Shown: positions 1 through 15,883, counted from the first letter of the stretch. The stretch is 61,108 nt of DNA from a virus (IMGVR_UViG_3300031949_000741:1-61108); one strand, 5' to 3'. Made by a program: numbers and translations. The notes: generated from the sequence alone by a model not told the origin.

Positions 1-290
1 GAGAGAGGGGGGAAGGGGAGGGGGGAGGAGGTAAATCTCTCACTCTAGTACTCTAATAGAGTATTATTAGTACTTTCCTGGAGTATTATGCATCTGCTCT
101 TCTACTAAGACATCTCTCTTTGTATTATAGTATATAATATACAAAGCTTTTTCAAGGATCTCTCTCACTCTGAGTAAGTTCCAGAGGTATAAAGTAAACG
201 TTTCATCTCCCAGACCCCCTTTTTAAGGCTCTAGAGGGTATAATCTTTTACTTTCAGTACACATTTTTCTTGTGAGAGGTACTACTTTTC
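1..290. repeat. Repeat- and palindrome-rich non-coding region, possible origin or genome end
   Basis: Purine/G tract at 1-31; direct repeat TCTCTCACTCT at 36-46 and 161-171; inverted repeat CTTTGTAT/ATACAAAG at 118-146; AGAGG(G)TA at about 183, 233 and 275; lies just upstream of a RepL-like gene. Confidence 0.4.
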
Positions 291-294
291 TTCT

Positions 295-302
295 TAACTT
301 TG
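295..302 (+). promoter_or_regulatory. Bacteroidota -7 promoter element TAACTTTG
   Basis: Matches TAnnTTTG, 24 nt before ATG 327. Confidence 0.6.
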
Positions 303-326
303 TACTCAGGTACTAAAACTTTACTT

Positions 327-887
327 ATGTACAACATCTCGCGTAATCCGTTTATCTACAGTGCATCTCCTATCGAGTTGATGGAGATAGGCACCCGTAA
401 CTATGTAGTAAGTGATAACTCTACAACAGGAGTTCCTCCTGATCAGATATCACGTACTTATCTGGCTGACAGAACCAGTAAGACCTGTGTATACTACAAG
501 TCTTATGTGGCGGAGGACTTTATTAATAAGCTCTCTGCTCCCGCCCTTAAGCTCTTTATCTATATTATCTACAAGCTTCCGGATAACCAGGACTGGATAA
601 AGATTAAGATCAAGACTCTTCAGGAACAACTCAATTTCAAGTCTACCCGCACGGTAGCTAAGGCCCTTAAGTGTCTCGTTGATACTTGTGTTATCTGTAA
701 GAAGTCACAGTCTGAATACTGGGTGGACCCTAAGGTTCTCTTTAAAGGTGACAGGGTAAGTTTCTATCTTAAGAACCATCCTGATTGTGTTAAGGTGGTG
801 GCTAAGATACAAGCTAACTCTGTGGTACCTCTCTCAGGTGTGGTTAGGGAACCAGTAGTAGAGTATGCTGCTAGTAAACATTCTTGA
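327..887 (+). CDS. repL: RepL-like winged-helix replication/maintenance protein
   Basis: wHTH-like LQEQLNFKSTRTVAKALKCLV followed by YWVDPKVLFKGDR, typical of the RepL family; ATG 327 preferred over TTG 300, which overlaps the promoter. Confidence 0.65.
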   Translation: MYNISRNPFIYSASPIELMEIGTRNYVVSDNSTTGVPPDQISRTYLADRTSKTCVYYKSYVAEDFINKLSAPALKLFIYIIYKLPDNQDWIKIKIKTLQEQLNFKSTRTVAKALKCLVDTCVICKKSQSEYWVDPKVLFKGDRVSFYLKNHPDCVKVVAKIQANSVVPLSGVVREPVVEYAASKHS

Positions 888-973
888 CTTATGATGGCGA
901 ATAATCTTTACTGTAGTAAAGTCTTTTTACTTTAGAGCGGTTAATCCTTCTGTCACACGAGAGACGTCTCTTT

Positions 974-1000
974 AAAAGATAGAAGCCCCCTTCCGGGGGC
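974..1000 (-). terminator. Intrinsic terminator for the 1037-1429 gene
   Basis: Minus strand GCCCCC-GGAA-GGGGGC followed by TTCTATCTTTT. Confidence 0.75.
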
Positions 1001-1036
1001 CGCTACCACTATGTCTTACTATGTCTGTCAGGAAGC

Positions 1037-1429
1037 TTACTTCGCTGACTCGTCCAGAGGCTTCTCCTCTGCAACCGGAGCTGCAGCAACAGAGATACCT
1101 TTGAACATTGATCCGAGGATCATGTCAGCACCGCGGGATGCCAAAGCATCTCCCAGCTTTCCGCTGAACTGGTCTGCCAAAGAGGCAACTGCACGGATGT
1201 CGCTGGTGTCGGCGTACACACGTCCCGAGTTCTTTGCTACTGCAAGAGTAGCGTTCTTACCCGCAAAACGGGTAGTGAACCACAGGGGATTTCCCTGTTC
1301 GTCCTCACGGGCGTTGTCGCCCTGAGCTTTCTTGAACTCTTCGAGTTGCTCGGGAGTTCCGCTTACAGCATACTTGAACACAGGGTTCCCGTTTTTGCTG
1401 ATGTAGCTTCCTAAATACTTGCCTTTCAT
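1037..1429 (-). CDS. Hypothetical protein, probably a highly expressed early gene
   Basis: 130-aa ORF with strong codon bias, an upstream motif copy (1517-1526) and a downstream terminator. Confidence 0.8.
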   Translation of the reverse strand: MKGKYLGSYISKNGNPVFKYAVSGTPEQLEEFKKAQGDNAREDEQGNPLWFTTRFAGKNATLAVAKNSGRVYADTSDIRAVASLADQFSGKLGDALASRGADMILGSMFKGISVAAAPVAEEKPLDESAK

Positions 1430-1516
1430 AGCTCGTGTTTTTAGATTGGTTAAACATTGGTGAATTGGTGCAGCTCTCTAGGCCCTAGAAGCCATATTGG
1501 ATCTGCGTACTCCCAG

Positions 1517-1526
1517 TCAGGGGTTG
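1517..1526 (-). promoter_or_regulatory. CAACCCCTGA motif, putative phage early promoter
   Basis: One of 5-7 similar copies upstream of leftward units. Confidence 0.55.
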
Positions 1527-1546
1527 TTGGGAGTGTGTTGTTGGGA

Positions 1547-1576
1547 GAATAAGAGAGGAAGTAAGGACTACTCCCC
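1547..1576 (-). terminator. Putative terminator
   Basis: Minus strand GGGGAGTA-GTCCT-TACTTCCT then CTCTTATTCT, just after the stop at 1582. Confidence 0.5.
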
Positions 1577-1581
1577 AAGTG

Positions 1582-1773
1582 TTAGTTGAGGTGATAGTCC
1601 TTAATAATCAGTCTTTCAGGTATAGTGAGGATCTCTACCTTACGTATTCCTTTGAGGAATCCAGGACTTCCGTCCTTACACATAAGATAGAACCCGTAGA
1701 CCTCATTCTTGTCCGGGAAGAGGTCACAGAGCATGTGTCCCTCACAGCAGTATATCAAGGCTATAGTTCTCAT
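1582..1773 (-). CDS. Small hypothetical protein (63 aa)
   Basis: ATGA overlap with the upstream ORF; followed by a terminator. Confidence 0.65.
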   Translation of the reverse strand: MRTIALIYCCEGHMLCDLFPDKNEVYGFYLMCKDGSPGFLKGIRKVEILTIPERLIIKDYHLN

Positions 1774-1940
1774 AGAGACCTCCCCTTTACCTTGTTACGG
1801 AAGTTTATGTCAACCTCATTCTGATGCATCATGTGTACTAACATGATCCTCATAGTCTGACGGTACATAGATGAGCGCACGTCTACCTCCCGGCGGAGAG
1901 TGAGGTGGGCTACATTAAACATGTAGATGAATGTTCTCAT
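1770..1940 (-). CDS. Small hypothetical protein (56 aa, MRTFIYMFNVAHL...), not in the ORF track
   Basis: ACCGCC-ATG start context; TGA overlaps the ATG of the next gene. Confidence 0.6.
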   Translation of the reverse strand: MRTFIYMFNVAHLTLRREVDVRSSMYRQTMRIMLVHMMHQNEVDINFRNKVKGRSL

Positions 1941-1979
1941 GGCGGTGCATATTAGATGATTATGATATATACGTGGTTG

Positions 1980-2012
1980 AAGAATAGACCCCCGCCTTCC
2001 GGAGAGGGTCTA
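1980..2012 (-). terminator. Intrinsic terminator
   Basis: Minus strand TAGACCCTCTCC-GGAA-GGCGGGGGTCTA then TTCTT. Confidence 0.65.
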
Positions 2013-2027
2013 AGACCGCACTGTCTC

Positions 2028-2075
2028 CTACTTGCTAGCAGGGAACCAGTACTCATAGAGAGCTAAGTCATACAT
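2028..2075 (-). CDS. Possible 15-aa micropeptide MYDLALYEYWFPASK
   Basis: Same ACCGCC-ATG context as starts at 1940 and 3025; fills the gap before the terminator. Confidence 0.35.
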   Translation of the reverse strand: MYDLALYEYWFPASK

Positions 2076-2329
2076 GGCGGTTTGGGTTTAAGCTTGGCAA
2101 CAGCCTTGATCTTGTCAAGGACGTGCTTATTGTACTGGTTGATAATCCCGTAGAACAGGTAGTAACCCTTCTTGGTTACATGTACCTTGATCTCGGGATA
2201 TCTCTTGAGCTCAGTTAGCTGCATCACTTTCTTCCCCGTTTCGGACTTGTACCGATACTTGAAGTGATAGTAGCTGCCAAACTGTACCTCACCGTACTTA
2301 AGGTTCATAAGTTGTTCTAGCGGGCTCAT
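2063..2329 (-). CDS. Small basic, Tyr/Lys-rich hypothetical protein (88 aa)
   Basis: CCTACTACC-ATG start; coupled to the upstream ORF by ATGA. Confidence 0.7.
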   Translation of the reverse strand: MSPLEQLMNLKYGEVQFGSYYHFKYRYKSETGKKVMQLTELKRYPEIKVHVTKKGYYLFYGIINQYNKHVLDKIKAVAKLKPKPPCMT

Positions 2330-2454
2330 GGTAGTAGGAATAAGTTATTACCTTGAATATGTCTGGTTAGCAGGATTCTTACAGTCTCACAGTTAGACTG
2401 CTTCCAGTTATCGTGACTAAGGACGTGCTTGCAGATGGATAGAAAGGTCTTCAT
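2326..2454 (-). CDS. Small hypothetical protein (42 aa, MKTFLSICKHVLSHDNW...), not in the ORF track
   Basis: Identical CCTACTACC-ATG context; ATGA overlap with 2329; follows the motif at 2478-2487. Confidence 0.55.
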   Translation of the reverse strand: MKTFLSICKHVLSHDNWKQSNCETVRILLTRHIQGNNLFLLP

Positions 2455-2477
2455 GGTAGTAGGTATTTAAGTGGATG

Positions 2478-2487
2478 TCAGGGGTTG
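2478..2487 (-). promoter_or_regulatory. CAACCCCTGA motif, putative phage early promoter
   Basis: Exact copy of 1517-1526, just downstream of a terminator. Confidence 0.55.
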
Positions 2488-2496
2488 GTGATGTGA

Positions 2497-2519
2497 TTAA
2501 AGGGAGCCGTAGCTCCCTT
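2497..2519 (-). terminator. Intrinsic terminator
   Basis: Minus strand AAGGGAGC-TACG-GCTCCCTT then TAA, directly after the stop at 2524. Confidence 0.65.
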
Positions 2520-2523
2520 ATAG

Positions 2524-2817
2524 TTAAGACAGAGACTCCATAGCCTCTGCAGGTTCAGGCTTGTAGCTCTGAATAAGGTTCACACTCTTGTGGAAGGATA
2601 TCTCATTCTCCAGTATGGATATAACTTCTTCCAGATTGTGTGCTCCCTCAAGGTCTGCTATGATATTAGCCTTGATTGTCCTGAAGTCTACATTAGGAAG
2701 CAGGGATGCCAGACGTTTTAGTGTAGGTAGATGAACTATGGCGAGCTCACCTTCGATCTTTGGTACCAGGACTACGGCCTCTTGTCCGTCTCCCAGCTTA
2801 ACAATTTCTCTTTTCAT
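2524..2817 (-). CDS. Hypothetical protein (97 aa, MKREIVKLGDG...)
   Basis: CTACC-ATG at 2817 preferred over the GTG at 2910, which lies in hairpins. Confidence 0.7.
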   Translation of the reverse strand: MKREIVKLGDGQEAVVLVPKIEGELAIVHLPTLKRLASLLPNVDFRTIKANIIADLEGAHNLEEVISILENEISFHKSVNLIQSYKPEPAEAMESLS

Positions 2818-2944
2818 GGTAGATGTTATTAATGTAGTTAATGTACTGGTTAATAACCCATAGGCCACAGGGAGAACTAGTCTCCCCACAGCTACAGGTG
2901 TACCTACCACAGTGATATCCGCTGTGGTGGTTTGAGGGTCTCTG

Positions 2945-3025
2945 TCACGATACAGTCAGTGCGACCGCAGCAATGAAGGTGAACCAGAGTATGGCCAGCT
3001 TCGTAGGTGATAATGTTGTTCTCAT
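2945..3025 (-). CDS. Possible 26-aa membrane peptide MRTTLSPTKLAILWFTFIAAVALTVS
   Basis: ACCGCC-ATG context; single hydrophobic helix; follows motif TAACCCCTTA at 3063-3072. Confidence 0.5.
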   Translation of the reverse strand: MRTTLSPTKLAILWFTFIAAVALTVS

Positions 3026-3062
3026 GGCGGTTAGGGTTTATAACGTTAAACTTTAAGTGAAT

Positions 3063-3072
3063 TAAGGGGTTA
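3063..3072 (-). promoter_or_regulatory. TAACCCCTTA motif variant
   Basis: One mismatch to CAACCCCTNA; upstream of the 3025 ORF. Confidence 0.4.
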
Positions 3073-3164
3073 GTGAAAGCCTGCATCCTATCTCATGGCC
3101 TTTCATGCAGCACTTGCAGAAGGCGCACCGTAGGTCATACAGGCTTGGGAGGTGTGTAAGATCT

Positions 3165-3374
3165 TTACATACGGACCATACTTGAGAATGGATAGAGCCG
3201 GAAGCGCTCGTTCTCAACAGAGTCCATGAATACACCCGGCTCCTGCTCCTCAAGAACCTTCACAGGAACCCGGGAGATAGGATGGTGTACTCTGGCCACT
3301 CGTTTCTTAGTGGTCTCATTGCGACGGATATGCACTACGTGTGCCAGCCCGTCAAGGATAAGTTTTACTATCAT
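3165..3374 (-). CDS. Small hypothetical protein (69 aa)
   Basis: Starts 25 nt after motif CAACCCCTCA (3400-3409). Confidence 0.6.
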   Translation of the reverse strand: MIVKLILDGLAHVVHIRRNETTKKRVARVHHPISRVPVKVLEEQEPGVFMDSVENERFRLYPFSSMVRM

Positions 3375-3399
3375 GTGGTATGTATTAATTTACTAAGGA

Positions 3400-3409
3400 T
3401 GAGGGGTTG
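3400..3409 (-). promoter_or_regulatory. CAACCCCTCA motif
   Basis: Copy of the repeated motif. Confidence 0.55.
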
Positions 3410-3714
3410 ACAACTCAGCAGGAATCGAGGCTGGGATGACCCGAAGGCCTCGTAGTACCAAGGCCCCGAGACTCTACTGCTCAGTGTTTATAGTGCTTAC
3501 TCGCTTATCCTACGCTTTGGGCACACTCCTACCCCGACAGGATCTTGGGCACTGATTTATACTCCGGAGTGGAGAGTTAAAGATATATAGATACACTACG
3601 AAGTGACCGAACTTTCCCCTATCGTCTATTCTCTGAAGTGGCTAGTGCCTGTATTCAGTAAACAGTAGGCTTTACGGAGTGAACGCTTGTGTATCTATAT
3701 ATCTTTAGGTGTAG
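3410..3714 (-). ncRNA. Putative structured ncRNA cassette
   Basis: Bounded by motif copies; no ATG seen on the minus strand; perfect 19-bp inverted repeat (3578-3596/3689-3707) and a cUUCGg-containing junction (3417-3481). Confidence 0.45.
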
Positions 3715-3724
3715 TAAGGGGTTG
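3715..3724 (-). promoter_or_regulatory. CAACCCCTTA motif
   Basis: Copy of the repeated motif, 7 nt upstream of the 19-bp stem. Confidence 0.55.
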
Positions 3725-3920
3725 ACTCGTGGAAGGCTGAGAGCTTACCGGTCTCCGGAATTTGCGTCTGTAGACAAGCCTTATTTCTCTAGTGTGTTGA
3801 TAGATAGTGATCACCGAAACCCTCCATTCTTGGAAGGCTAAGAGAGGCCCTTATATAGACATAGTATCTCACTTCCCTTGCACCCATCATCACCTCCCGT
3901 GCCCCTGCTGACTCTATAAT

Positions 3921-4000
3921 CATCTCAGCCAGGTGAAGCATCTGCAGAACAGAGTAGTGCAAAGCCACTTCAGAACAGAGATGTTTCCTGGCTGTGGATG
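3921..4000. repeat. Long imperfect hairpin with an internal direct repeat
   Basis: CAGCCAGG/CCTGGCTG, AAGCATCT/AGATGTTT, AGTG/CACT; CAGAACAGAG at 3945-3954 and 3971-3980. Confidence 0.65.
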
Positions 4001-4186
4001 TTTTAAGAAGGATGACGTATTGATCCTAAGATAGTTGCCTGAGATGACCGGGGGTAGGGGGTATGATTTGAAACCAGTGGGGGGTTGAAGAGGAGATCTA
4101 ACATGTGTTCTACTCCCATAAAAATTTACCCCTACCTATTATAAGTGAGCTATATACCCCTACCTTTACAGACTAACCTTTTCACC

Positions 4187-5038
4187 ATGAGTTACAAAAG
4201 ACTATGCGGTATATATCTCATAAGAAATATCAGGAATGGTAAGGTCTATATAGGTTCCTCTCTCCACATGAAGAATAGGTGGAGAGATCATCGTTATGAC
4301 CTTAAGAGAAATAATCATGATAGTCTACACCTACAGGCTTCCTGGAATAAGTACGGGAGAGATAACTTCGAGTTCTCTATAGTGGAGCTCTGTCCGGAGG
4401 ACAGTCTTCTCGATAAGGAATCCTACTGGATAAAGTTACATAACTCTATAGATTCATCCTGCGGATACAACGGGATAATGCCAGGGGATTATCATAAGTC
4501 TAGACCGGATATCCTTATGAAACAGAGTAAGCCTATAAAGATTGTCGTATGTATAAATAAGATCACGGGACTTACAGAGGAGGGATACCGCCCACATTTA
4601 TCTAGAGAACTGTCTATTCCCTGCCAGAAGATTACAGACTGCTGTAAGTATTGGAAGAAGAAGATAGGTCCGGGTCTTAAGAAGAGTATCAGAGGTTATA
4701 TCTTCGTCTATAAAGAGGACTATGAACCTGAGTTTGACTATATTAACCACAATATAAGAGGTAAGAATCATCTATGGAGAACTATCCTGCCTAAGAAGAC
4801 TCATTCCTTTAGGAAGAATCCAGAGGATATAATACCCCACTCCCAGAGAAATTATAAGAGAACTCCTATCTTGGCTACTCATATCCAGAGCGGCACAGAG
4901 ACTTCCTTTACCAGTATACAGGATTGTATAAGGAAATTAAAGCTAGCATCTAGAAAAGTCAGGGAGATACTCAATCACAAACCCTGGAGAACCCATCATG
5001 GATATACTTTCAAAGTAAAATCTACTTCCCTCCTCTAA
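4187..5038 (+). CDS. GIY-YIG homing endonuclease with NUMOD1-like DNA-binding domains
   Basis: CGIYLIRNIRNGKVYIGSS, RW..H, conserved Glu and GYN; C-terminal FTSIQDCIRKL...HGYTFK. Confidence 0.9.
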   Translation: MSYKRLCGIYLIRNIRNGKVYIGSSLHMKNRWRDHRYDLKRNNHDSLHLQASWNKYGRDNFEFSIVELCPEDSLLDKESYWIKLHNSIDSSCGYNGIMPGDYHKSRPDILMKQSKPIKIVVCINKITGLTEEGYRPHLSRELSIPCQKITDCCKYWKKKIGPGLKKSIRGYIFVYKEDYEPEFDYINHNIRGKNHLWRTILPKKTHSFRKNPEDIIPHSQRNYKRTPILATHIQSGTETSFTSIQDCIRKLKLASRKVREILNHKPWRTHHGYTFKVKSTSLL

Positions 5039-5088
5039 GCGTGACATCTCACGCAAGTCTCCCGGAATCTTTATATCTTTGCTCTACT

Positions 5089-5337
5089 ATGATCCCTGAT
5101 GATATAACCCTCTCTGAGTTCTTAGGACTCTCCAGAGCTACCAAGCAACCTGATGACAGGTGGGAAGTAAGCTTTCCGATCTCCAGGGGAAAGCAGGAGT
5201 GCTACGTAACAGACTGTCCGGGATACACAGAATTTGATGCCAAGGAAGATGCCTTTAATCTTGTACTGGCTGTAATAGCTGGACAGAAGAGCTCTCGGGC
5301 GAGAGTTCGGGATCTTTCTGTAGCACACCCGGTCTAA
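5089..5337 (+). CDS. Small hypothetical protein (MIPDDITLSEF...)
   Basis: ACT-ATG start directly after TATCTTTG (5074-5081); 3' end overlaps the convergent AAA gene. Confidence 0.55.
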   Translation: MIPDDITLSEFLGLSRATKQPDDRWEVSFPISRGKQECYVTDCPGYTEFDAKEDAFNLVLAVIAGQKSSRARVRDLSVAHPV

Positions 5338-6493
5338 GACTCATAAGTATCTTCTGAACATCGGCCGTACTCCTGACCTTCTTACAGAACATCCTCATAA
5401 AGTCTTCCAGACCCTCACTGCCATAAAAGGATCTGTACATCCCCTCGGCCTGATCCTCATCACACCAGGTCATCTCAAGTCTGAAGTCCACCCGGCCAGG
5501 TCTGATCAGTGCAGGATCGAGCTTCTCCACATGATTAGTAGTCATAAATAAGAGAGTACCCTCAGGAGAACCTATCCCATCTATTCCGTTGATGAAAGCC
5601 TTAAAGGATACAGAGTCAGCTCCGGTTCTCTCGCGACCATCAAACATTCCGTCTATATCCTCAAAGAGAACAGCAGACCTCCGGGGAACCCTGCTGAGCA
5701 TAGCTACAAACTGTACTTCCGTCATCTTACTACTCATATTCAGGATATACACATTCATCTTATACTTCCCGGCTATAGCCTTAATGATGCTCGTCTTCCC
5801 TGTCCCGGGAGGTCCATAGAACAAGTACCCCCTCCTGTAGGGAATACCATGATTCACATACCAGTCCTCAGACCTGATAAAGTTATCCACGTCGTCTATA
5901 AGCATCTGCTTACTCTTGTCTTTCATAAATACAGTCCCAATAGGCCGGTCTCTCTGCTCACTGATTCTTATCCACTCACCATATGTATTATGAGAGTATA
6001 TCATAGTCATATTTACCTCAAGAGATCTGGAATAGGTTATAGCCTCCTCTATCATCTCCTTAGCCAGATCTTTTCTTCTGGTAAACATAGTTATGGTATA
6101 GTCTTCGTAGAGCTCGAAGGTAGTAGACTTATCCATCTCCTTACGTCCACGACCGATTATGCAGAACACACCCTTATATCTGAAGTAGTGGTTCCCGGGA
6201 CCGGGTGAGAATACAGGTCCCTGTTCTTCACAGGTACTACCTTCTTTTGTCGGGAAACCTCTTCCACTACTTACTGTCATAAGTCTGCTCTTCTTGCCAT
6301 AATCTATAGACCCTAACCATCTTGTAAATATCTTAAAGAGTTCATCCGTTCCCTGGATATCCATAGTGGTAATAAGCCGTTTACGGATCTCGCTCCATAA
6401 CAGAGGGACACCTCTATATACAAGTGTGCTTGCTGCAGCTATGAGAGCAAGTATAATTCCACCCTGCACCAGGGGGTCTGAAGTAAATAGCAT
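5255..6493 (-). CDS. BCS1-like membrane-anchored AAA+ ATPase
   Basis: N-terminal TM helix; BCS1_N-like FSPGPGNHYFRYKG; IPYRRGYLFYGPPGTGKTS (Walker A); VLFEDID (Walker B); MTTNHVEKLDPALIRPGRVD. Confidence 0.88.
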   Translation of the reverse strand: MLFTSDPLVQGGIILALIAAASTLVYRGVPLLWSEIRKRLITTMDIQGTDELFKIFTRWLGSIDYGKKSRLMTVSSGRGFPTKEGSTCEEQGPVFSPGPGNHYFRYKGVFCIIGRGRKEMDKSTTFELYEDYTITMFTRRKDLAKEMIEEAITYSRSLEVNMTMIYSHNTYGEWIRISEQRDRPIGTVFMKDKSKQMLIDDVDNFIRSEDWYVNHGIPYRRGYLFYGPPGTGKTSIIKAIAGKYKMNVYILNMSSKMTEVQFVAMLSRVPRRSAVLFEDIDGMFDGRERTGADSVSFKAFINGIDGIGSPEGTLLFMTTNHVEKLDPALIRPGRVDFRLEMTWCDEDQAEGMYRSFYGSEGLEDFMRMFCKKVRSTADVQKILMSLRPGVLQKDPELSPESSSVQLLQPVQD

Positions 6494-6514
6494 AGTGAAG
6501 TTGTTGGTTAACTG

Positions 6515-6542
6515 TAAAGGTAAAAGTTTATTATTATCTTTG
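6515..6542. promoter_or_regulatory. Divergent host-type promoters
   Basis: TATCTTTG (+, 6535-6542) for the glycan operon; variant TACCTTTA (-, 6515-6522) for the AAA gene. Confidence 0.55.
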
Positions 6543-6566
6543 TCCCGTCTAACCAACATTTTCGTC

Positions 6567-7265
6567 ATGAAGTTCTCCCTGGCTATTACCCACTACAACC
6601 GGTATGATATGCTCCTCCGGTCCTTCGAACAGGTCGTAGATGACCCGCGTATCAGTGAGGTCATTATATCAGACGATACCTCTACAGATAACTCATGGGA
6701 CAGGCTCAGGGAGACTTTCGGGAATAATCCCAAAATATACCTGCACAGGAACCAGACCAACATAGGAATGTCCTTAAATAAAGCTAAGGCAGTATCCTCA
6801 TGTATCAAGGGTCGCGTGATCCTGCTCGATAGTGATAACATCATAGATGCCTCTTACCTGGATGCAGCAGAAGCGGTCCTGAAAGTACCTTATGATAATA
6901 CAGTTATTTTCTGCCCGGAGTTTGCCCGTCCCAACTTTGACTACAGATTCTGGTCAGGCCGGACAATAGACATCTCCAACATTAAGACGTTTCTGGAGAA
7001 TCCTATGGGAGAGTGCCAGCTTAATACATGTAACTACATAGTAGACCGGGACAGGTATCTCAAGATCTACCAGTATGATCCTTTAATCAAAGAGACGGAC
7101 ACGGCACACTTCGCCCATCTCTGGCTTAAGTCAGGAGGATCCTTCTATATAGTACCTGATATGCAGTATGAACACACCGTGCACTCCGGCTCAGGCTGGC
7201 TGCAGAATGCTACCTATAATACGCAGAAGTCAAAGGAGCTCATCTACATGATCCGGAATCTCTGA
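6567..7265 (+). CDS. Glycosyltransferase family 2 (GT-A)
   Basis: LAITHYNR, IISDDTSTD, NIG..NK and LLDSD (DxD) motifs. Confidence 0.85.
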   Translation: MKFSLAITHYNRYDMLLRSFEQVVDDPRISEVIISDDTSTDNSWDRLRETFGNNPKIYLHRNQTNIGMSLNKAKAVSSCIKGRVILLDSDNIIDASYLDAAEAVLKVPYDNTVIFCPEFARPNFDYRFWSGRTIDISNIKTFLENPMGECQLNTCNYIVDRDRYLKIYQYDPLIKETDTAHFAHLWLKSGGSFYIVPDMQYEHTVHSGSGWLQNATYNTQKSKELIYMIRNL

Positions 7266-7268
7266 TCT

Positions 7269-8045
7269 ATGATGGTAACCTGCCGACTCTACGGCCGCAT
7301 GGCTAACCAGATGTTGCAGATAGCAGCTACTGTAGGATATGCCCGCAGGTATAATCTCCCCTACCATATCCCTGCTACTACTATTAATCCTAATACCTGG
7401 CCCCCAAGATTCACACATCTCACTAACAATAATTATGACGCTAAGCTTCCTACTATAGTCTTAAGAGAGACTACTCATGCCTACCAGGAGATGAAGTTTG
7501 ATCTTACCTGGAGCAATCTTAATATAGTCATAGATGGATACAGGCAGTCCCTCAAGTACTTTGAGCACTGTCTTGCCGAGGTCCGCAGAGCTTTTCCCTT
7601 CACTTACTCCTTCAATAAGAATACAGTAGGCCTGCATGTAAGAATCGGGGACTATAAGCTGTATCCCGATCATCATCCCGTTATTGCGGATATCTATATA
7701 AGCAGGGCCCTTAGTCTTATGCAGAGAAAAGGGCTTACGGATATTCATGTATTCAGTGACTCTATAGAGGAGTGTACCACCAGAATTAATCAGCAGATAT
7801 ATCCCGGATTCACCTTCACATATTCAGACCCCCGGTCAACTGACAGGTACGACTTTCAGTCTCTACTGAGTTGTGAGCACTTCATCATAAGCAACTCCAC
7901 ATTCTCTCTTATGGCCGCTATTCTCTCAGAGAGTCCCGGTAAGATAGTAATCAGTCCTTCAAAAGATAAATGGTTCGGACCATCAAACAGACACCTCGAT
8001 ACCTCAGATCTCATACCCACCGACTTTATACAAATAGACTACTAA
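7269..8045 (+). CDS. GT11 family, alpha-1,2-fucosyltransferase-like
   Basis: GRMANQMLQ, GYRQS, GLHVRIGDY (HxRxxD) and ISNSTFS. Confidence 0.9.
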   Translation: MMVTCRLYGRMANQMLQIAATVGYARRYNLPYHIPATTINPNTWPPRFTHLTNNNYDAKLPTIVLRETTHAYQEMKFDLTWSNLNIVIDGYRQSLKYFEHCLAEVRRAFPFTYSFNKNTVGLHVRIGDYKLYPDHHPVIADIYISRALSLMQRKGLTDIHVFSDSIEECTTRINQQIYPGFTFTYSDPRSTDRYDFQSLLSCEHFIISNSTFSLMAAILSESPGKIVISPSKDKWFGPSNRHLDTSDLIPTDFIQIDY

Positions 8046-8048
8046 ACT

Positions 8049-8678
8049 ATGGATAGACTAACATTACTGGAGGGACTGGCTAAAGTTCACCACACAGATA
8101 AGCTGGAGCACGGTTACCTGGAACATTATGCATCAGTACTCCCCAAACAGTGCAGCTCTCTTCTTGAGATAGGAGCTGCTAAAGGCTACTCCTTACTTAT
8201 GTGGAATGACTTCTATGGAATGGATAATGTGGATATACACTGTCTTGACCTTTTCATAAACCCGGAGTTTGTTAACGCACGCTGGTGCCGTAATCACAAC
8301 TTTGTCCCCCATACCGGAGACCAGTCAGATCTCAGGGTACTCTCCAGAATACATGATCAGTTTAACGTGATTATAGATGATGGATCTCACAACTCTTATG
8401 ATCAGCTCTTATCTTTCAAGCACCTCTTCCTTAATAATCTTCTCTCAGGAGGTCTTTATGTGATAGAAGACTGTCACTGTTGTAAGGATCCTTTCTACTG
8501 GAACAAAGGGATAACCTCTTTTGAAGAGACAGCACTTCACCTTATAAAGGAGTTTATAGTAACACATAGAATAACTCACTGGCTCTTCAATGAGGGAGAA
8601 GCTGAGGTATTCGAGTCTGTTATAGATAAGGCGGAAGTACTTTGCAATGATAAGATGATATGTATATGGAAGAAGTAA
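8049..8678 (+). CDS. SAM-dependent (sugar O-)methyltransferase
   Basis: TDK..HGY...Y, LLEIG, IIDDGSH and GGLYVIED motifs. Confidence 0.85.
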   Translation: MDRLTLLEGLAKVHHTDKLEHGYLEHYASVLPKQCSSLLEIGAAKGYSLLMWNDFYGMDNVDIHCLDLFINPEFVNARWCRNHNFVPHTGDQSDLRVLSRIHDQFNVIIDDGSHNSYDQLLSFKHLFLNNLLSGGLYVIEDCHCCKDPFYWNKGITSFEETALHLIKEFIVTHRITHWLFNEGEAEVFESVIDKAEVLCNDKMICIWKK

Positions 8679-9352
8679 GTACTATCCTTGTAGCATATCC
8701 TAAGAGCGGGAGTACCTGGCTAAAGTTTCTGCTGTGTAACCTGTTAAGACCGGATACAGAGCATGACTTTACCACAACTACCCGGCTTATACCATGTCTG
8801 GGTACCCCCGAGATGGAGAACAGTAAAAGATTTCTCCTTCTCAGATCTCACTTGTACACAAACTACCTGGAGCAGGACCATAAAGTTATTTATCTGCACA
8901 GGCACCCGGCAGACGTTCTTGTATCCTTCTACTTTCACAATAAGAAGTTCTATGACTACAAGGGAGATCTCACAACCTTTCTTAGGGATATGGAATATGG
9001 GAGGGAGTGGAGCGAGTACATGATATACTGGTTATCACAGAGAGGCACTAACCTTCTGGAGATATCCTATAGAGAACTCGAATTCGATACCAGTATCCAG
9101 CTCGAGAGAATAGCTCTCTTTATGGGCAAAGACTATTGTGCAGACAAAATAAACAGGGCGGTATCTAATAGCAATATGACTCGTATGAAGACACTGGAAT
9201 CTACTAAAGGATTAGGTCTTGACTCAGATACATCTATAAGATTTGTCAGGGAAGGAGGAGACAGAAGCCGTCACCTGATCTCCAGAGCAGACTATGAACA
9301 GATATTAAGGTATAACCATAACACACTAAAACTTGCAGGATATGTTAATTAA
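8660..9352 (+). CDS. PAPS-dependent sulfotransferase
   Basis: YPKSGSTWL (5'-PSB loop) and RHPADVLVSFY (3'-PB motif). Confidence 0.9.
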   Translation: MYMEEVSTILVAYPKSGSTWLKFLLCNLLRPDTEHDFTTTTRLIPCLGTPEMENSKRFLLLRSHLYTNYLEQDHKVIYLHRHPADVLVSFYFHNKKFYDYKGDLTTFLRDMEYGREWSEYMIYWLSQRGTNLLEISYRELEFDTSIQLERIALFMGKDYCADKINRAVSNSNMTRMKTLESTKGLGLDSDTSIRFVREGGDRSRHLISRADYEQILRYNHNTLKLAGYVN

Positions 9353-9962
9353 CCTGATGCAGCTAAAGAAGAGACACCAGCTAGATATACGAGGAGTTAT
9401 ACATATAGGTGCCCACCACGGACAGGAGTATAGCGACTATAAACTCTGCGGTATACATAATATCGTCTTTATAGAACCTTCCCCTGAAGCTTTCAAAGTT
9501 CTCTCAGCAAAGATGACCACTAAGTCGGAAGTCAGACTCTTTAATGTGGCATGCGGATCCTCCTACCAGGAAGCAACTATGTTTACTGAGACAGCTAATC
9601 AGGGACAGAGCAACTCACTACTCAGACCCGAGAAACATACTCTCTACTACCCTACCATAGAATTTAAAGGAACCCAGACCGTAGAAGTAACCCCTCTTGA
9701 CTCTATACTTCTGGACAAGCCATTATACAATATGATGAATATAGATGTTCAGGGTTATGAACTCGAAGTACTCAGAGGCTCGGAAGGAACCCTCCCTGGC
9801 ATAGATTATCTATACCTAGAGGTGAATATCTCAGAGTTGTATGAGGGATGTGCAAAGCTCAGTGAGATTGATAATTTCCTGAGTGACTTTATAAGACTGG
9901 ATACCCTCTTTACAGGAGAAGGATGGGGAGATGCATTTTACATAAGGAGGAGCTTACTATGA
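9342..9962 (+). CDS. FkbM family methyltransferase
   Basis: VIHIGAHHG, FIEP, SNSLL and IDVQGYELEVL. Confidence 0.9.
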   Translation: MLINLMQLKKRHQLDIRGVIHIGAHHGQEYSDYKLCGIHNIVFIEPSPEAFKVLSAKMTTKSEVRLFNVACGSSYQEATMFTETANQGQSNSLLRPEKHTLYYPTIEFKGTQTVEVTPLDSILLDKPLYNMMNIDVQGYELEVLRGSEGTLPGIDYLYLEVNISELYEGCAKLSEIDNFLSDFIRLDTLFTGEGWGDAFYIRRSLL

Positions 9963-10810
9963 TCAGAGTACCCGAAGAGTTCCGGCAAAGACACCCTTTC
10001 CCCTATCCTCCGGATAACAAGATTATTTTTGAGGAGTGGCTCTATAACATGCTGGCAATTTCTCCCAGGAAAGCTACCCCGAGAGTTTATCTACCTATAT
10101 TCTGGACAGCTTATCTTGTCAGGGCTGATTTCGGAAAGCACAAAGGTAAACTTGGTAAGCTGCAGACTTATGTAAATTCACTGAGTCCTAATATTAAGTA
10201 CTGGACAGTAGTACAATATGATGATGGCCCGGTGGTAGACATGTCCCATCTTGACTGCAAGTTCTTTGCTATGTCCGGTCCTAAGATAGACTATCCACTT
10301 CCTCTTATAGGTAGACCTCATACTGTAGAAGTACAGCAGGAACACCGGCCTTATCTCTTCAATTTCATAGGTAGAGTAACACATCCTCTGCGTAAAGAAC
10401 TTATGGAGACTCTGTCTAATCAATCCGACGGGTATATATCTACCAAGGATCATAATATTCAGCAGTACTGTGATATTCTTTCAAAGTCTGTCTTCACTTT
10501 ATGTCCCCGAGGATACGGACAGACCTCTTTCAGAATATCCGAGGCACTGCAGTACGGGTCTATCCCGGTCTATATCTCTGATGACTTCATCATTCCTTAT
10601 AACCACAACTTCTGCGACTATGGCCTAACCTTTTCTCCTGGTGATCTTCAGGAAGTTCTAAACACCCTCAGAGACTTTCCCAGAGATACTATAAAGAATA
10701 TCCAGTCCCGGATACCCTCTATCTACTATTCACTATTTACCTATGAAGGATGTTCAGTAAGGATCTTAAAAGAGCTGCATGATGAAGGCCTCGATAATAG
10801 TACCATATAG
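9959..10810 (+). CDS. Exostosin family (GT47) glycosyltransferase
   Basis: FNFIG...HPLR and SVFTLCPRGYGQTSFRISEALQYGSIPVYISD; ATGA-coupled to the previous gene. Confidence 0.85.
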   Translation: MIRVPEEFRQRHPFPYPPDNKIIFEEWLYNMLAISPRKATPRVYLPIFWTAYLVRADFGKHKGKLGKLQTYVNSLSPNIKYWTVVQYDDGPVVDMSHLDCKFFAMSGPKIDYPLPLIGRPHTVEVQQEHRPYLFNFIGRVTHPLRKELMETLSNQSDGYISTKDHNIQQYCDILSKSVFTLCPRGYGQTSFRISEALQYGSIPVYISDDFIIPYNHNFCDYGLTFSPGDLQEVLNTLRDFPRDTIKNIQSRIPSIYYSLFTYEGCSVRILKELHDEGLDNSTI

Positions 10811-15694: not shown

Positions 15695-15883
15695 ATGATG
15701 AATCTTATTACACACTTAAGCAGTCTTGATAGCTACCTGGGATCTCTTAGTCTTAACAGGCAGGAACACACCAAAGTTATGCACCTGACAACCGCACTCC
15801 GTACGGCTATTCTGGAAGAAATACAAAAGCAGGCATCTGAGACAAAGAAACCAGATCTTCCACTACAAGTACAAAACTCCTAA
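15695..15883 (+). CDS. Small hypothetical protein
   Basis: Follows TACATTTG (15665-15672) and a TAACCAAC leader. Confidence 0.6.
   Translation: MMNLITHLSSLDSYLGSLSLNRQEHTKVMHLTTALRTAILEEIQKQASETKKPDLPLQVQNS

Follow-up and report, generated by a model that had tools for sequence, protein, structure and literature searches.

Few phages are known to be as abundant as the crAss-like ones. In phage T7, the early operon has tandem host sigma-70 promoters (A1-A3) about 125 nt apart, and the RNase III sites are imperfect two-part stems. The polycistronic transcripts of T7 are described as being processed by RNase III (PMC6938266). In T4-type phages, promoter-early stem-loop (PeSL) cassettes have been reported, in which a repeated promoter and stem-loops lie between small, non-essential ORFan genes; the early region is described as hyperplastic, and the repeats could mediate gain and loss of cassettes (PMC2839356). 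For phi14:2, a crAss-like Cellulophaga phage, a preprint reports two early intergenic lncRNAs, one between g004 and g005 and one between g005 and g006 (bioRxiv 10.1101/2020.03.07.982082). According to the same preprint, these lncRNAs are stronger than most genes, are on from the earliest time point, persist, and have no known function, and no motif shared by the early transcripts was found upstream of them (bioRxiv 10.1101/2020.03.07.982082). The current record of phi14:2 contains no CDS between 2904 and 4602. Our literature search for ncRNAs of crAss-like phages after phi14:2 returned only this preprint.

We analysed a window of 61,108 nt, which is a complete virus record in IMG/VR with an estimated completeness of about 51%. 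Judged from its sequence, the window is about half the genome of a soil crAss-like phage. Matches to crAss-type PHROG families were obtained for the terminase, the portal and the major head protein. Cultured and gut crAss-like phages have terminases about 25% identical to that of the window, whereas identity is 58-65% at 80 environmental IMG/VR loci, several of which are found on contigs of 115-124 kb. The only sequencing run containing the window DNA was one DNA run of a soil metagenome, its probable source. From about 6.4 kb on, the genes point rightward, the long ORFs among them being open when read with translation table 11, whereas small ORFan genes at 1037-3374 point leftward. The DFDxD polymerase motif was absent from the six largest ORFs of this half-genome. 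The stretch of interest, 3375-4144, forms the head of the leftward arm, and its right-hand neighbour is a GIY-YIG gene pointing rightward; its two gene-free units, A and B, are listed with the other features in Table 1. A group I intron hosting the GIY-YIG gene was rejected as a candidate, with neither Rfam support nor an interrupted gene.

Two further observations concern the neighbouring genes. Host-like carbohydrate-modification genes (GT2, GT11 and GT47-type glycosyltransferases, a methyltransferase and a sulfotransferase by Pfam) occupy 6366-10810 on the plus strand. This block is an unusual accessory set for a crAss-like phage and had no tblastn match in the fetched portions of four related genomes. 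A BCS1/FtsH-like AAA+ ATPase is encoded at 5255-6568 on the minus strand; its closest phage relatives are found in jumbo phages and in Caulobacter/Brevundimonas phages at 28-31% identity, and no relative was detected in IMG/VR or in five related crAss-like records.

Table 1. Features at the head of the leftward arm (positions counted from the first letter of the window).
Feature	Position	Strand	Basis or score
Gene for a 69-aa protein of no known family, the first credible one in the leftward arm	3165..3374	-	Coding score +2.0, strong frame contrast; passes simple gene call
Motif copy in front of the first protein gene; TAAA 14 nt before the ATG at 3374	3389..3408	-	Motif scan
Unit B tail, two modest hairpins (3481-3555, 3417-3481)	3410..3577	-	z -0.85 as a whole
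"Clamped" module, 130 nt: perfect 19-bp inverted repeat (3578-3596 / 3689-3707) around 92 nt	3578..3707	-	MFE, inverted-repeat scan
Three-copy element, copy 1, inside the clamp interior, inverted relative to copies 2 and 3	3625..3643	-	Repeat search
Motif copy, exact AACCCCT-N9-TAAA, head of unit B	3704..3723	-	Motif scan
Unit A, gene-free, about 340 nt	3724..4068	-	Fold z +0.47, no excess structure as a whole
Doubtful 50-codon ORF in unit A	3789..3941	-	Coding score -0.9 bits/100 nt (computed on 3789-3929), in the spurious range
Three-copy element, copy 2, inside the 3921-4000 hairpin	3936..3954	+	Repeat search
Three-copy element, copy 3, inside the 3921-4000 hairpin	3962..3980	+	Repeat search
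Motif copy, degenerate (AACCCCC-N9-CAAA), weakest of five, head of unit A	4067..4086	-	Regex scan, sequence
GIY-YIG homing endonuclease gene	4187..5038	+	PHROG homing endonuclease families, E 1.9e-24

The stretch 3375-4144 is the largest in the window without a credible ORF, spanning 770 nt as compared with 326 nt for the next. By a simple acceptance rule, credible ORFs cover 94.4% of the window, so that the genome is otherwise as tightly packed with genes as the original prediction had described it. We scored coding potential with a three-periodic Markov model trained on the 32 long rightward genes of the window. Credible leftward ORFs scored between +2 and +10 bits/100 nt, whereas all stop-to-stop frames in the gap scored within the distribution of spurious ORFs (mean -5.8, sd 4.6, 95th percentile 1.7). 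The same prediction had allowed one unit nothing more than a doubtful 50-codon ORF and had noted that the other, at 3410-3714, lacks a minus-strand ATG. Both statements agree with our results. The 50-codon ORF scored in the spurious range, and a search against 5.8 billion proteins returned as its sole match the 50-aa call of the window itself. No ATG was found on the minus strand in 3410-3722, where 2.76 were expected (P 0.033); however, ATG-free runs of up to 722 nt occur on the minus strand elsewhere in the window, so that the depletion in unit B is only mildly unusual. The non-coding nature of the gap is thus well supported.

The arrangement resembles that reported for phi14:2: in each of the two crAss-like phages, a pair of neighbouring gene-free stretches lies among the small genes of the early arm and has the direction of those genes. 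However, the gaps share no sequence similarity, and a blastn comparison (word size 7) of the gap with phi14:2 1-9000 returned only chance matches of 10-21 nt. The phi14:2 gap is about 1.7 kb long, very AT-rich and without a long perfect helix. The units of the window are headed by a clear motif, whereas none was found in common upstream of the phi14:2 early transcripts. Moreover, the phi14:2 RNAs were seen to be expressed, according to the preprint, whereas those of the window are putative.

The promoter-like motif has the form AACCCC(T/C)-N9/10-(T/C)(T/A)AA. A relaxed regex found seven sites in the window, five of them on the minus strand and all within 2486-4086 (at 4086, 3723, 3408, 3071 and 2486); the two on the plus strand lie elsewhere and are unrelated. 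With up to one mismatch, AACCCCT-N9-TAAA had nine matches in the window against 1.33 expected, a number that none of 100 shuffles reached. The copies at 3408, 3071 and 2486 are located 11-26 nt upstream of the ATGs of small genes, and those at 3723 and 4086 head the gene-free units B and A, respectively. That both units start at motif copies, placed at 3715 and 4078 in the original prediction, was therefore confirmed, the copies spanning 3704-3723 and about 4067-4086. No sigma-70-like site coincided with the motif copies, the motif was absent from five related records, and to our knowledge it does not resemble the Bacteroidota promoter consensus. One-mismatch copies also lie directly upstream of three rightward genes, at 15875, 19660 and 27198; the third of these encodes the major head protein. 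Because the motif thus precedes rightward genes as well, the label "early" is only something we infer, and the suggestion of an RNA effector made immediately on infection finds no support.

On the plus strand, ACCCCTACCT occurs twice (4128 and 4156), 30-60 nt upstream of the ATG of the homing endonuclease. A similar sequence, ACCCCCTACC, is found on the minus strand at 4050-4062, just downstream of the 4086 motif. Since related C-run signals are present on both strands, the gap may be a divergent promoter region.

Leftward non-coding transcription of the gap is plausible, because the gap is non-coding and is headed by motif copies that stand elsewhere before small genes. In the reading that we favour over its rivals, though at no better than even odds, the gap is a transcribed non-coding leader or a set of early-RNA cassettes with one processing or stability hairpin. 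The gap would then be the non-coding head of a putatively early leftward ORFan arm, in which the extra motif copies at 4086 and 3723 stand in tandem with the 3408 copy of the first gene, and leftward transcription would most likely produce RNA that encodes no protein. We infer such transcription, along with its direction, its timing and any processing. Two arrangements could be envisaged: two cassettes of about 300-360 nt each, or nested long leaders of the gene at 3374-3165 arising from tandem promoters at 4086, 3723 and 3408. Tandem promoters with nested leaders are possible, because no terminator-like site was detected in 3410-4086. Against the leader or cassette reading, the 4086 copy is degenerate and the motif is unlike a sigma-70 promoter, the one-mismatch copies before rightward genes leave the timing unfixed, and the searches described below found no homologue of the gap DNA.

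The PeSL cassettes, as they are described for T4-type phages, would be the nearest well-studied analogy for such repeated promoter units. Like PeSLs, the leftward arm shows a repeated promoter-like signal dispersed among ORFan genes, with five minus-strand copies in 2486-4086. Unlike the PeSL promoters, which are described as sigma-70-like and accompanied by stem-loops proven to be terminators, the window motif is not sigma-70-like and its two upstream units are without terminator-like sites; furthermore, their cargo is non-coding.

Alternatively, the units could be promoter-bounded early cassettes of the kind involved in PeSL-type shuffling, with protein cargo that has decayed or been deleted, or they could encode a micro-protein such as the 50-aa ORF, without any function at the RNA level. 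The leftward arm does consist of promoter-plus-cargo units, some closed by terminator-like hairpins (2005-1989, 1576-1556 and 1001-984), and its cargo is unconserved: when its small minus-strand ORFs (1037-3374) were used as queries, only one of nine matched any of four relatives (G001-G004). Tiny genes are present in the arm, for instance the 26-codon ORF after the 3071 motif copy, and the segment 3789-3929 shows some frame contrast (-0.9 versus -25.3 and -11.5). In addition, most of the gap folds like random sequence, as described below. On the other hand, tblastx of the gap against 1.14 Mb of relatives gave no similarity, the 50-codon ORF has no homologue, unit B is devoid of any sense-strand ATG, and a perfect 19-bp helix together with a three-copy element would not be expected in decaying sequence. 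We consider decayed cassettes or a micro-gene distinctly unlikely.

The 26-codon ORF (2945-3025, minus strand) is hydrophobic, and its 18-nt leader (3023-3040) recurs at 94% identity (2073-2090) before a 15-codon ORF at about 2075. Leftward-arm genes can be tiny, so micro-ORFs are not dismissible on length alone. As for the larger proteins of the arm, a peptide scan of IMG/VR found no relative of the 69-aa protein, and a 130-aa leftward protein was found on three metagenome contigs of 1.0-1.6 kb at 49-58% identity, the gap lying beyond their reach.

The original prediction was of a large, densely structured RNA packed with stems, and this mostly fails. Folded as a whole, the 668 nt had a z of -1.61 for the minus strand and of -1.38 for the plus strand, and for each strand 2 of 20 shuffles did equally well. 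In a scan of the first 15 kb, segments of 120 nt were ordinary except for one at z -2.3. For unit A, 98 of 150 shuffles reached an MFE as good as that of the minus strand, and the plus strand had z -1.08. The tail of unit B was likewise unremarkable in 150 shuffles. Unit B as a whole had z -3.88 with none of 150 shuffles as good, but its significance was due solely to the 19-bp inverted repeat. The stems named earlier do fold; when cut out post hoc, the smaller ones had z between -0.7 and -3.4, including 3921-4000 (-2.6 minus, -3.3 plus), 3815-3842 (-3.4 minus), 3417-3481 (-2.16 minus versus -0.14 plus) and 3481-3555 (-1.55). Unit A, and unit B minus the one perfect hairpin, nevertheless fold no better than dinucleotide-shuffled controls, an outcome that the original prediction itself had named as speaking against it. 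Most of an RNA made from the gap would thus be no more structured than random sequence.

The gap shares with GOLLD and ROOL that it is phage-borne, non-coding and several hundred nucleotides long. Unlike them, it has no Rfam match and no excess folding energy. Rfam 15, which includes GOLLD, ROOL, group I intron, tRNA and freshwater-1 models, gave no match at the gathering threshold in the whole window. At E values up to 10, only two chance-level matches appeared in 2900-5400: SNORD74, with 16.6 bits where the threshold is 41, and part of KCNQ1OT1, the latter outside the region. The suggested kinship with GOLLD or ROOL accordingly did not hold at either stringency. ARAGORN detected no tRNA in the window. 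Searches with the gap DNA were equally empty: blastn against 50,697 phage records returned nothing usable, and no homologue was found in five related records. When 1.14 Mb of related loci were searched with blastn, tblastx and nhmmer, only 18-19-mers came up, and the two of their loci that were inspected suggest chance matches.

The one structure standing out is the clamped module, with an MFE of -44.7 kcal/mol on the minus strand (z -6.74, 0 of 200 shuffles) and -44.1 kcal/mol on the plus strand (z -6.43). No perfect local inverted repeat as long as its helix occurs elsewhere in the window or in the 1.14 Mb of window plus relatives. It is entirely Watson-Crick, without G-U pairs, and equally stable on both strands; the arms are 111 bp apart from centre to centre, and the interior alone had z -0.54. 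The helix starts at 3707, the T of TAAA in the 3723 motif. With up to three mismatches, the helix sequence was absent from five related records. An exact 18-mer of the helix had six matches in IMG/VR, all single-copy; the two that were inspected look like chance, one of them lying in apparently coding sequence.

In the leader or cassette reading, the 5' end of the RNA would be paired by a helix beginning at the TAAA, and in read-through transcripts this helix would be an RNase III-type processing or stability site. The perfect 19 bp could supply a dsRNA stem of roughly two turns, as in T7-type processing hairpins, provided that both arms are transcribed, which would depend on the start and on read-through from 4086. 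A start about 7 nt past the TAAA would place only part of the 5' arm in a transcript from 3723, which speaks against this reading. The T7 early leader is the nearest analogy for a processing hairpin: both regions are non-coding, with tandem promoters (here putative) before the first gene and a dsRNA leader hairpin potentially cut by RNase III. The two differ in that the motif copies of the window are spaced by 315-363 nt and that its helix is a perfect 19 bp enclosing 92 nt.

A second repeat links the two units. A 17-nt element had three matches in the window, all within the gap, against 0.17 expected, and none of 100 shuffles reached three. Copies 2 and 3 form a direct repeat with 26-nt spacing, and copy 1 is complementary to 3963-3981 at 16 of 19 bases, a value that 2 of 300 shuffles attained. 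For the direct pair, also 16/19, 13 of 300 did so, and none of the 300 attained the inverted and direct matches jointly. The element thus ties the hairpin of unit A to the clamp interior of unit B, where RNA-RNA pairing or binding of a regulator would be possible. Units A and B are not paralogues; their local alignment scored 17 against a shuffle mean of 17.8, and they are similar only via this 17-19-nt element. An unrestricted duplexfold of the two units was discarded, as it gave a meaningless full-length duplex (z -0.13), and the repeat statistics were used instead.

A perfect helix of equal stability on both strands fits a DNA-level element as well as it fits an RNA, which is a further point against the leader or cassette reading. 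The gap could be a control region at the point of divergence, in which the 19-bp arms and the 17-nt element bind a regulator or a replication initiator and act as an operator, in looping, or as an origin. Besides the perfect, strand-symmetric helix without G-U pairs, one arm overlaps the promoter motif, the 17-nt element occurs in both orientations, the gap lies at the strand switch with the divergent copies of ACCCCTACCT on the plus strand, and the cumulative GC skew turns near 4.9 kb. However, the skew turn coincides with the change in gene strand and is therefore not independent. The repeats number only three and do not form an iteron array, and apart from the clamp arm there is no AT-rich block for unwinding. 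Moreover, no replication initiator or repressor gene was recognised next to the gap among the PHROG and Pfam matches, and a comparable clamp in a relative is markedly more stable as sense RNA. We regard a DNA-level control region, too, as distinctly unlikely.

That relative, G002, encodes a 36%-identical homologue of the 130-aa leftward-arm protein. The equivalent arm is headed by a C-rich motif of its own, TGCCCCCGKC, present in four copies against 0.14 expected, and at one copy the downstream element reads much like that of the window. The arm contains gene-free gaps of 450-1200 nt and two perfect clamps, one of 16 bp around 236 nt and one of 14 bp around 128 nt, each within a gene-free gap; for one of these clamp modules, the sense strand has a stability advantage of 10 kcal/mol. 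A gene-free arm segment closed by a long perfect helix is thus present both in the window (3578-3707) and in G002. In the same relative, a terminator-like hairpin (11-bp stem, then TTTT) was observed about 125 nt after the first motif copy (locus L094, 6262-6425, plus strand) and only 25 nt before the ATG of the first gene. This stretch has the appearance of either a short RNA or a leader of the attenuator type.

The gaps of other relatives, phages of about 115-125 kb, yielded, in the stretches fetched upstream of the terminase gene, five tRNA-family matches and one freshwater-1 RNA. Four of the five tRNA-family matches are 99-130 nt long and were missed by ARAGORN. The long matches (Rfam tRNA, 34-44 bits) are found in L098 12079-13694, L037 362-472 and L095 7280-7409, and further copies of a common T-arm/acceptor repeat occur in the relatives that carry them. 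They could represent tRNAs that carry inserts or introns, or else tRNA-like RNAs. A full-length freshwater-1 motif (RF02979; 78.4 bits, E 3e-16) is present at L095 8033-8094 on the plus strand, adjoining a long tRNA in the gene-free gap of a 115-kb crAss-like relative. We had also considered these large gaps as arrays of promoter-led units, an idea that was rejected because their common 30-nt repeat belongs to long tRNA-like genes, of which it forms the T-arm and acceptor end. The gap of the window is likewise protein-free, and is itself without a tRNA or freshwater-1 (RF02979) match. Because protein-free, RNA-rich gaps recur in the fetched stretches of relatives, the prior that the window gap is transcribed becomes higher.

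These findings bear on a more specific possibility, namely that the gap encodes one or two discrete structured ncRNAs that act in trans during early infection, for example as a decoy against defence systems or as a regulator, with the clamp as the functional core. Gene-free units led by a promoter-like motif, the exceptional 19-bp helix and the complementarity between units A and B via the three-copy element would fit such RNAs, as would the apparently minus-strand-specific stability of 3417-3481 and 3815-3842, which arises through G-U pairs. The lncRNAs reported for phi14:2 offer a precedent, and clamps and RNA genes occur in the gaps of relatives. However, folding is at shuffle level outside the single helix, no Rfam family is matched, no terminators set discrete ends, and no conservation was found in the collections searched. 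We consider trans-acting RNAs unlikely. In its boldest form, the idea would be that two promoter-driven early RNAs form a two-part decoy or regulator device of an undescribed class in environmental crAss-like phages, a 130-nt RNA having its ends locked by the 19-bp helix and its interior pairing with the duplicated element of the neighbouring RNA; this proposal, too, appears doubtful to us.

Set beside the gaps of its relatives, the window gap is one more unconserved example, which matters less as a discovery in its own right than as a further case of a recurring pattern. With its clear arm-specific promoter-like motif, where phi14:2 yielded no early promoter motif, and with its motif-led gene-free units, this soil relative offers compact candidates for studying both how the crAss-like early programme is started and what early lncRNAs like those of phi14:2 do: the signal of 20 nt and the clamped module of 130 nt.
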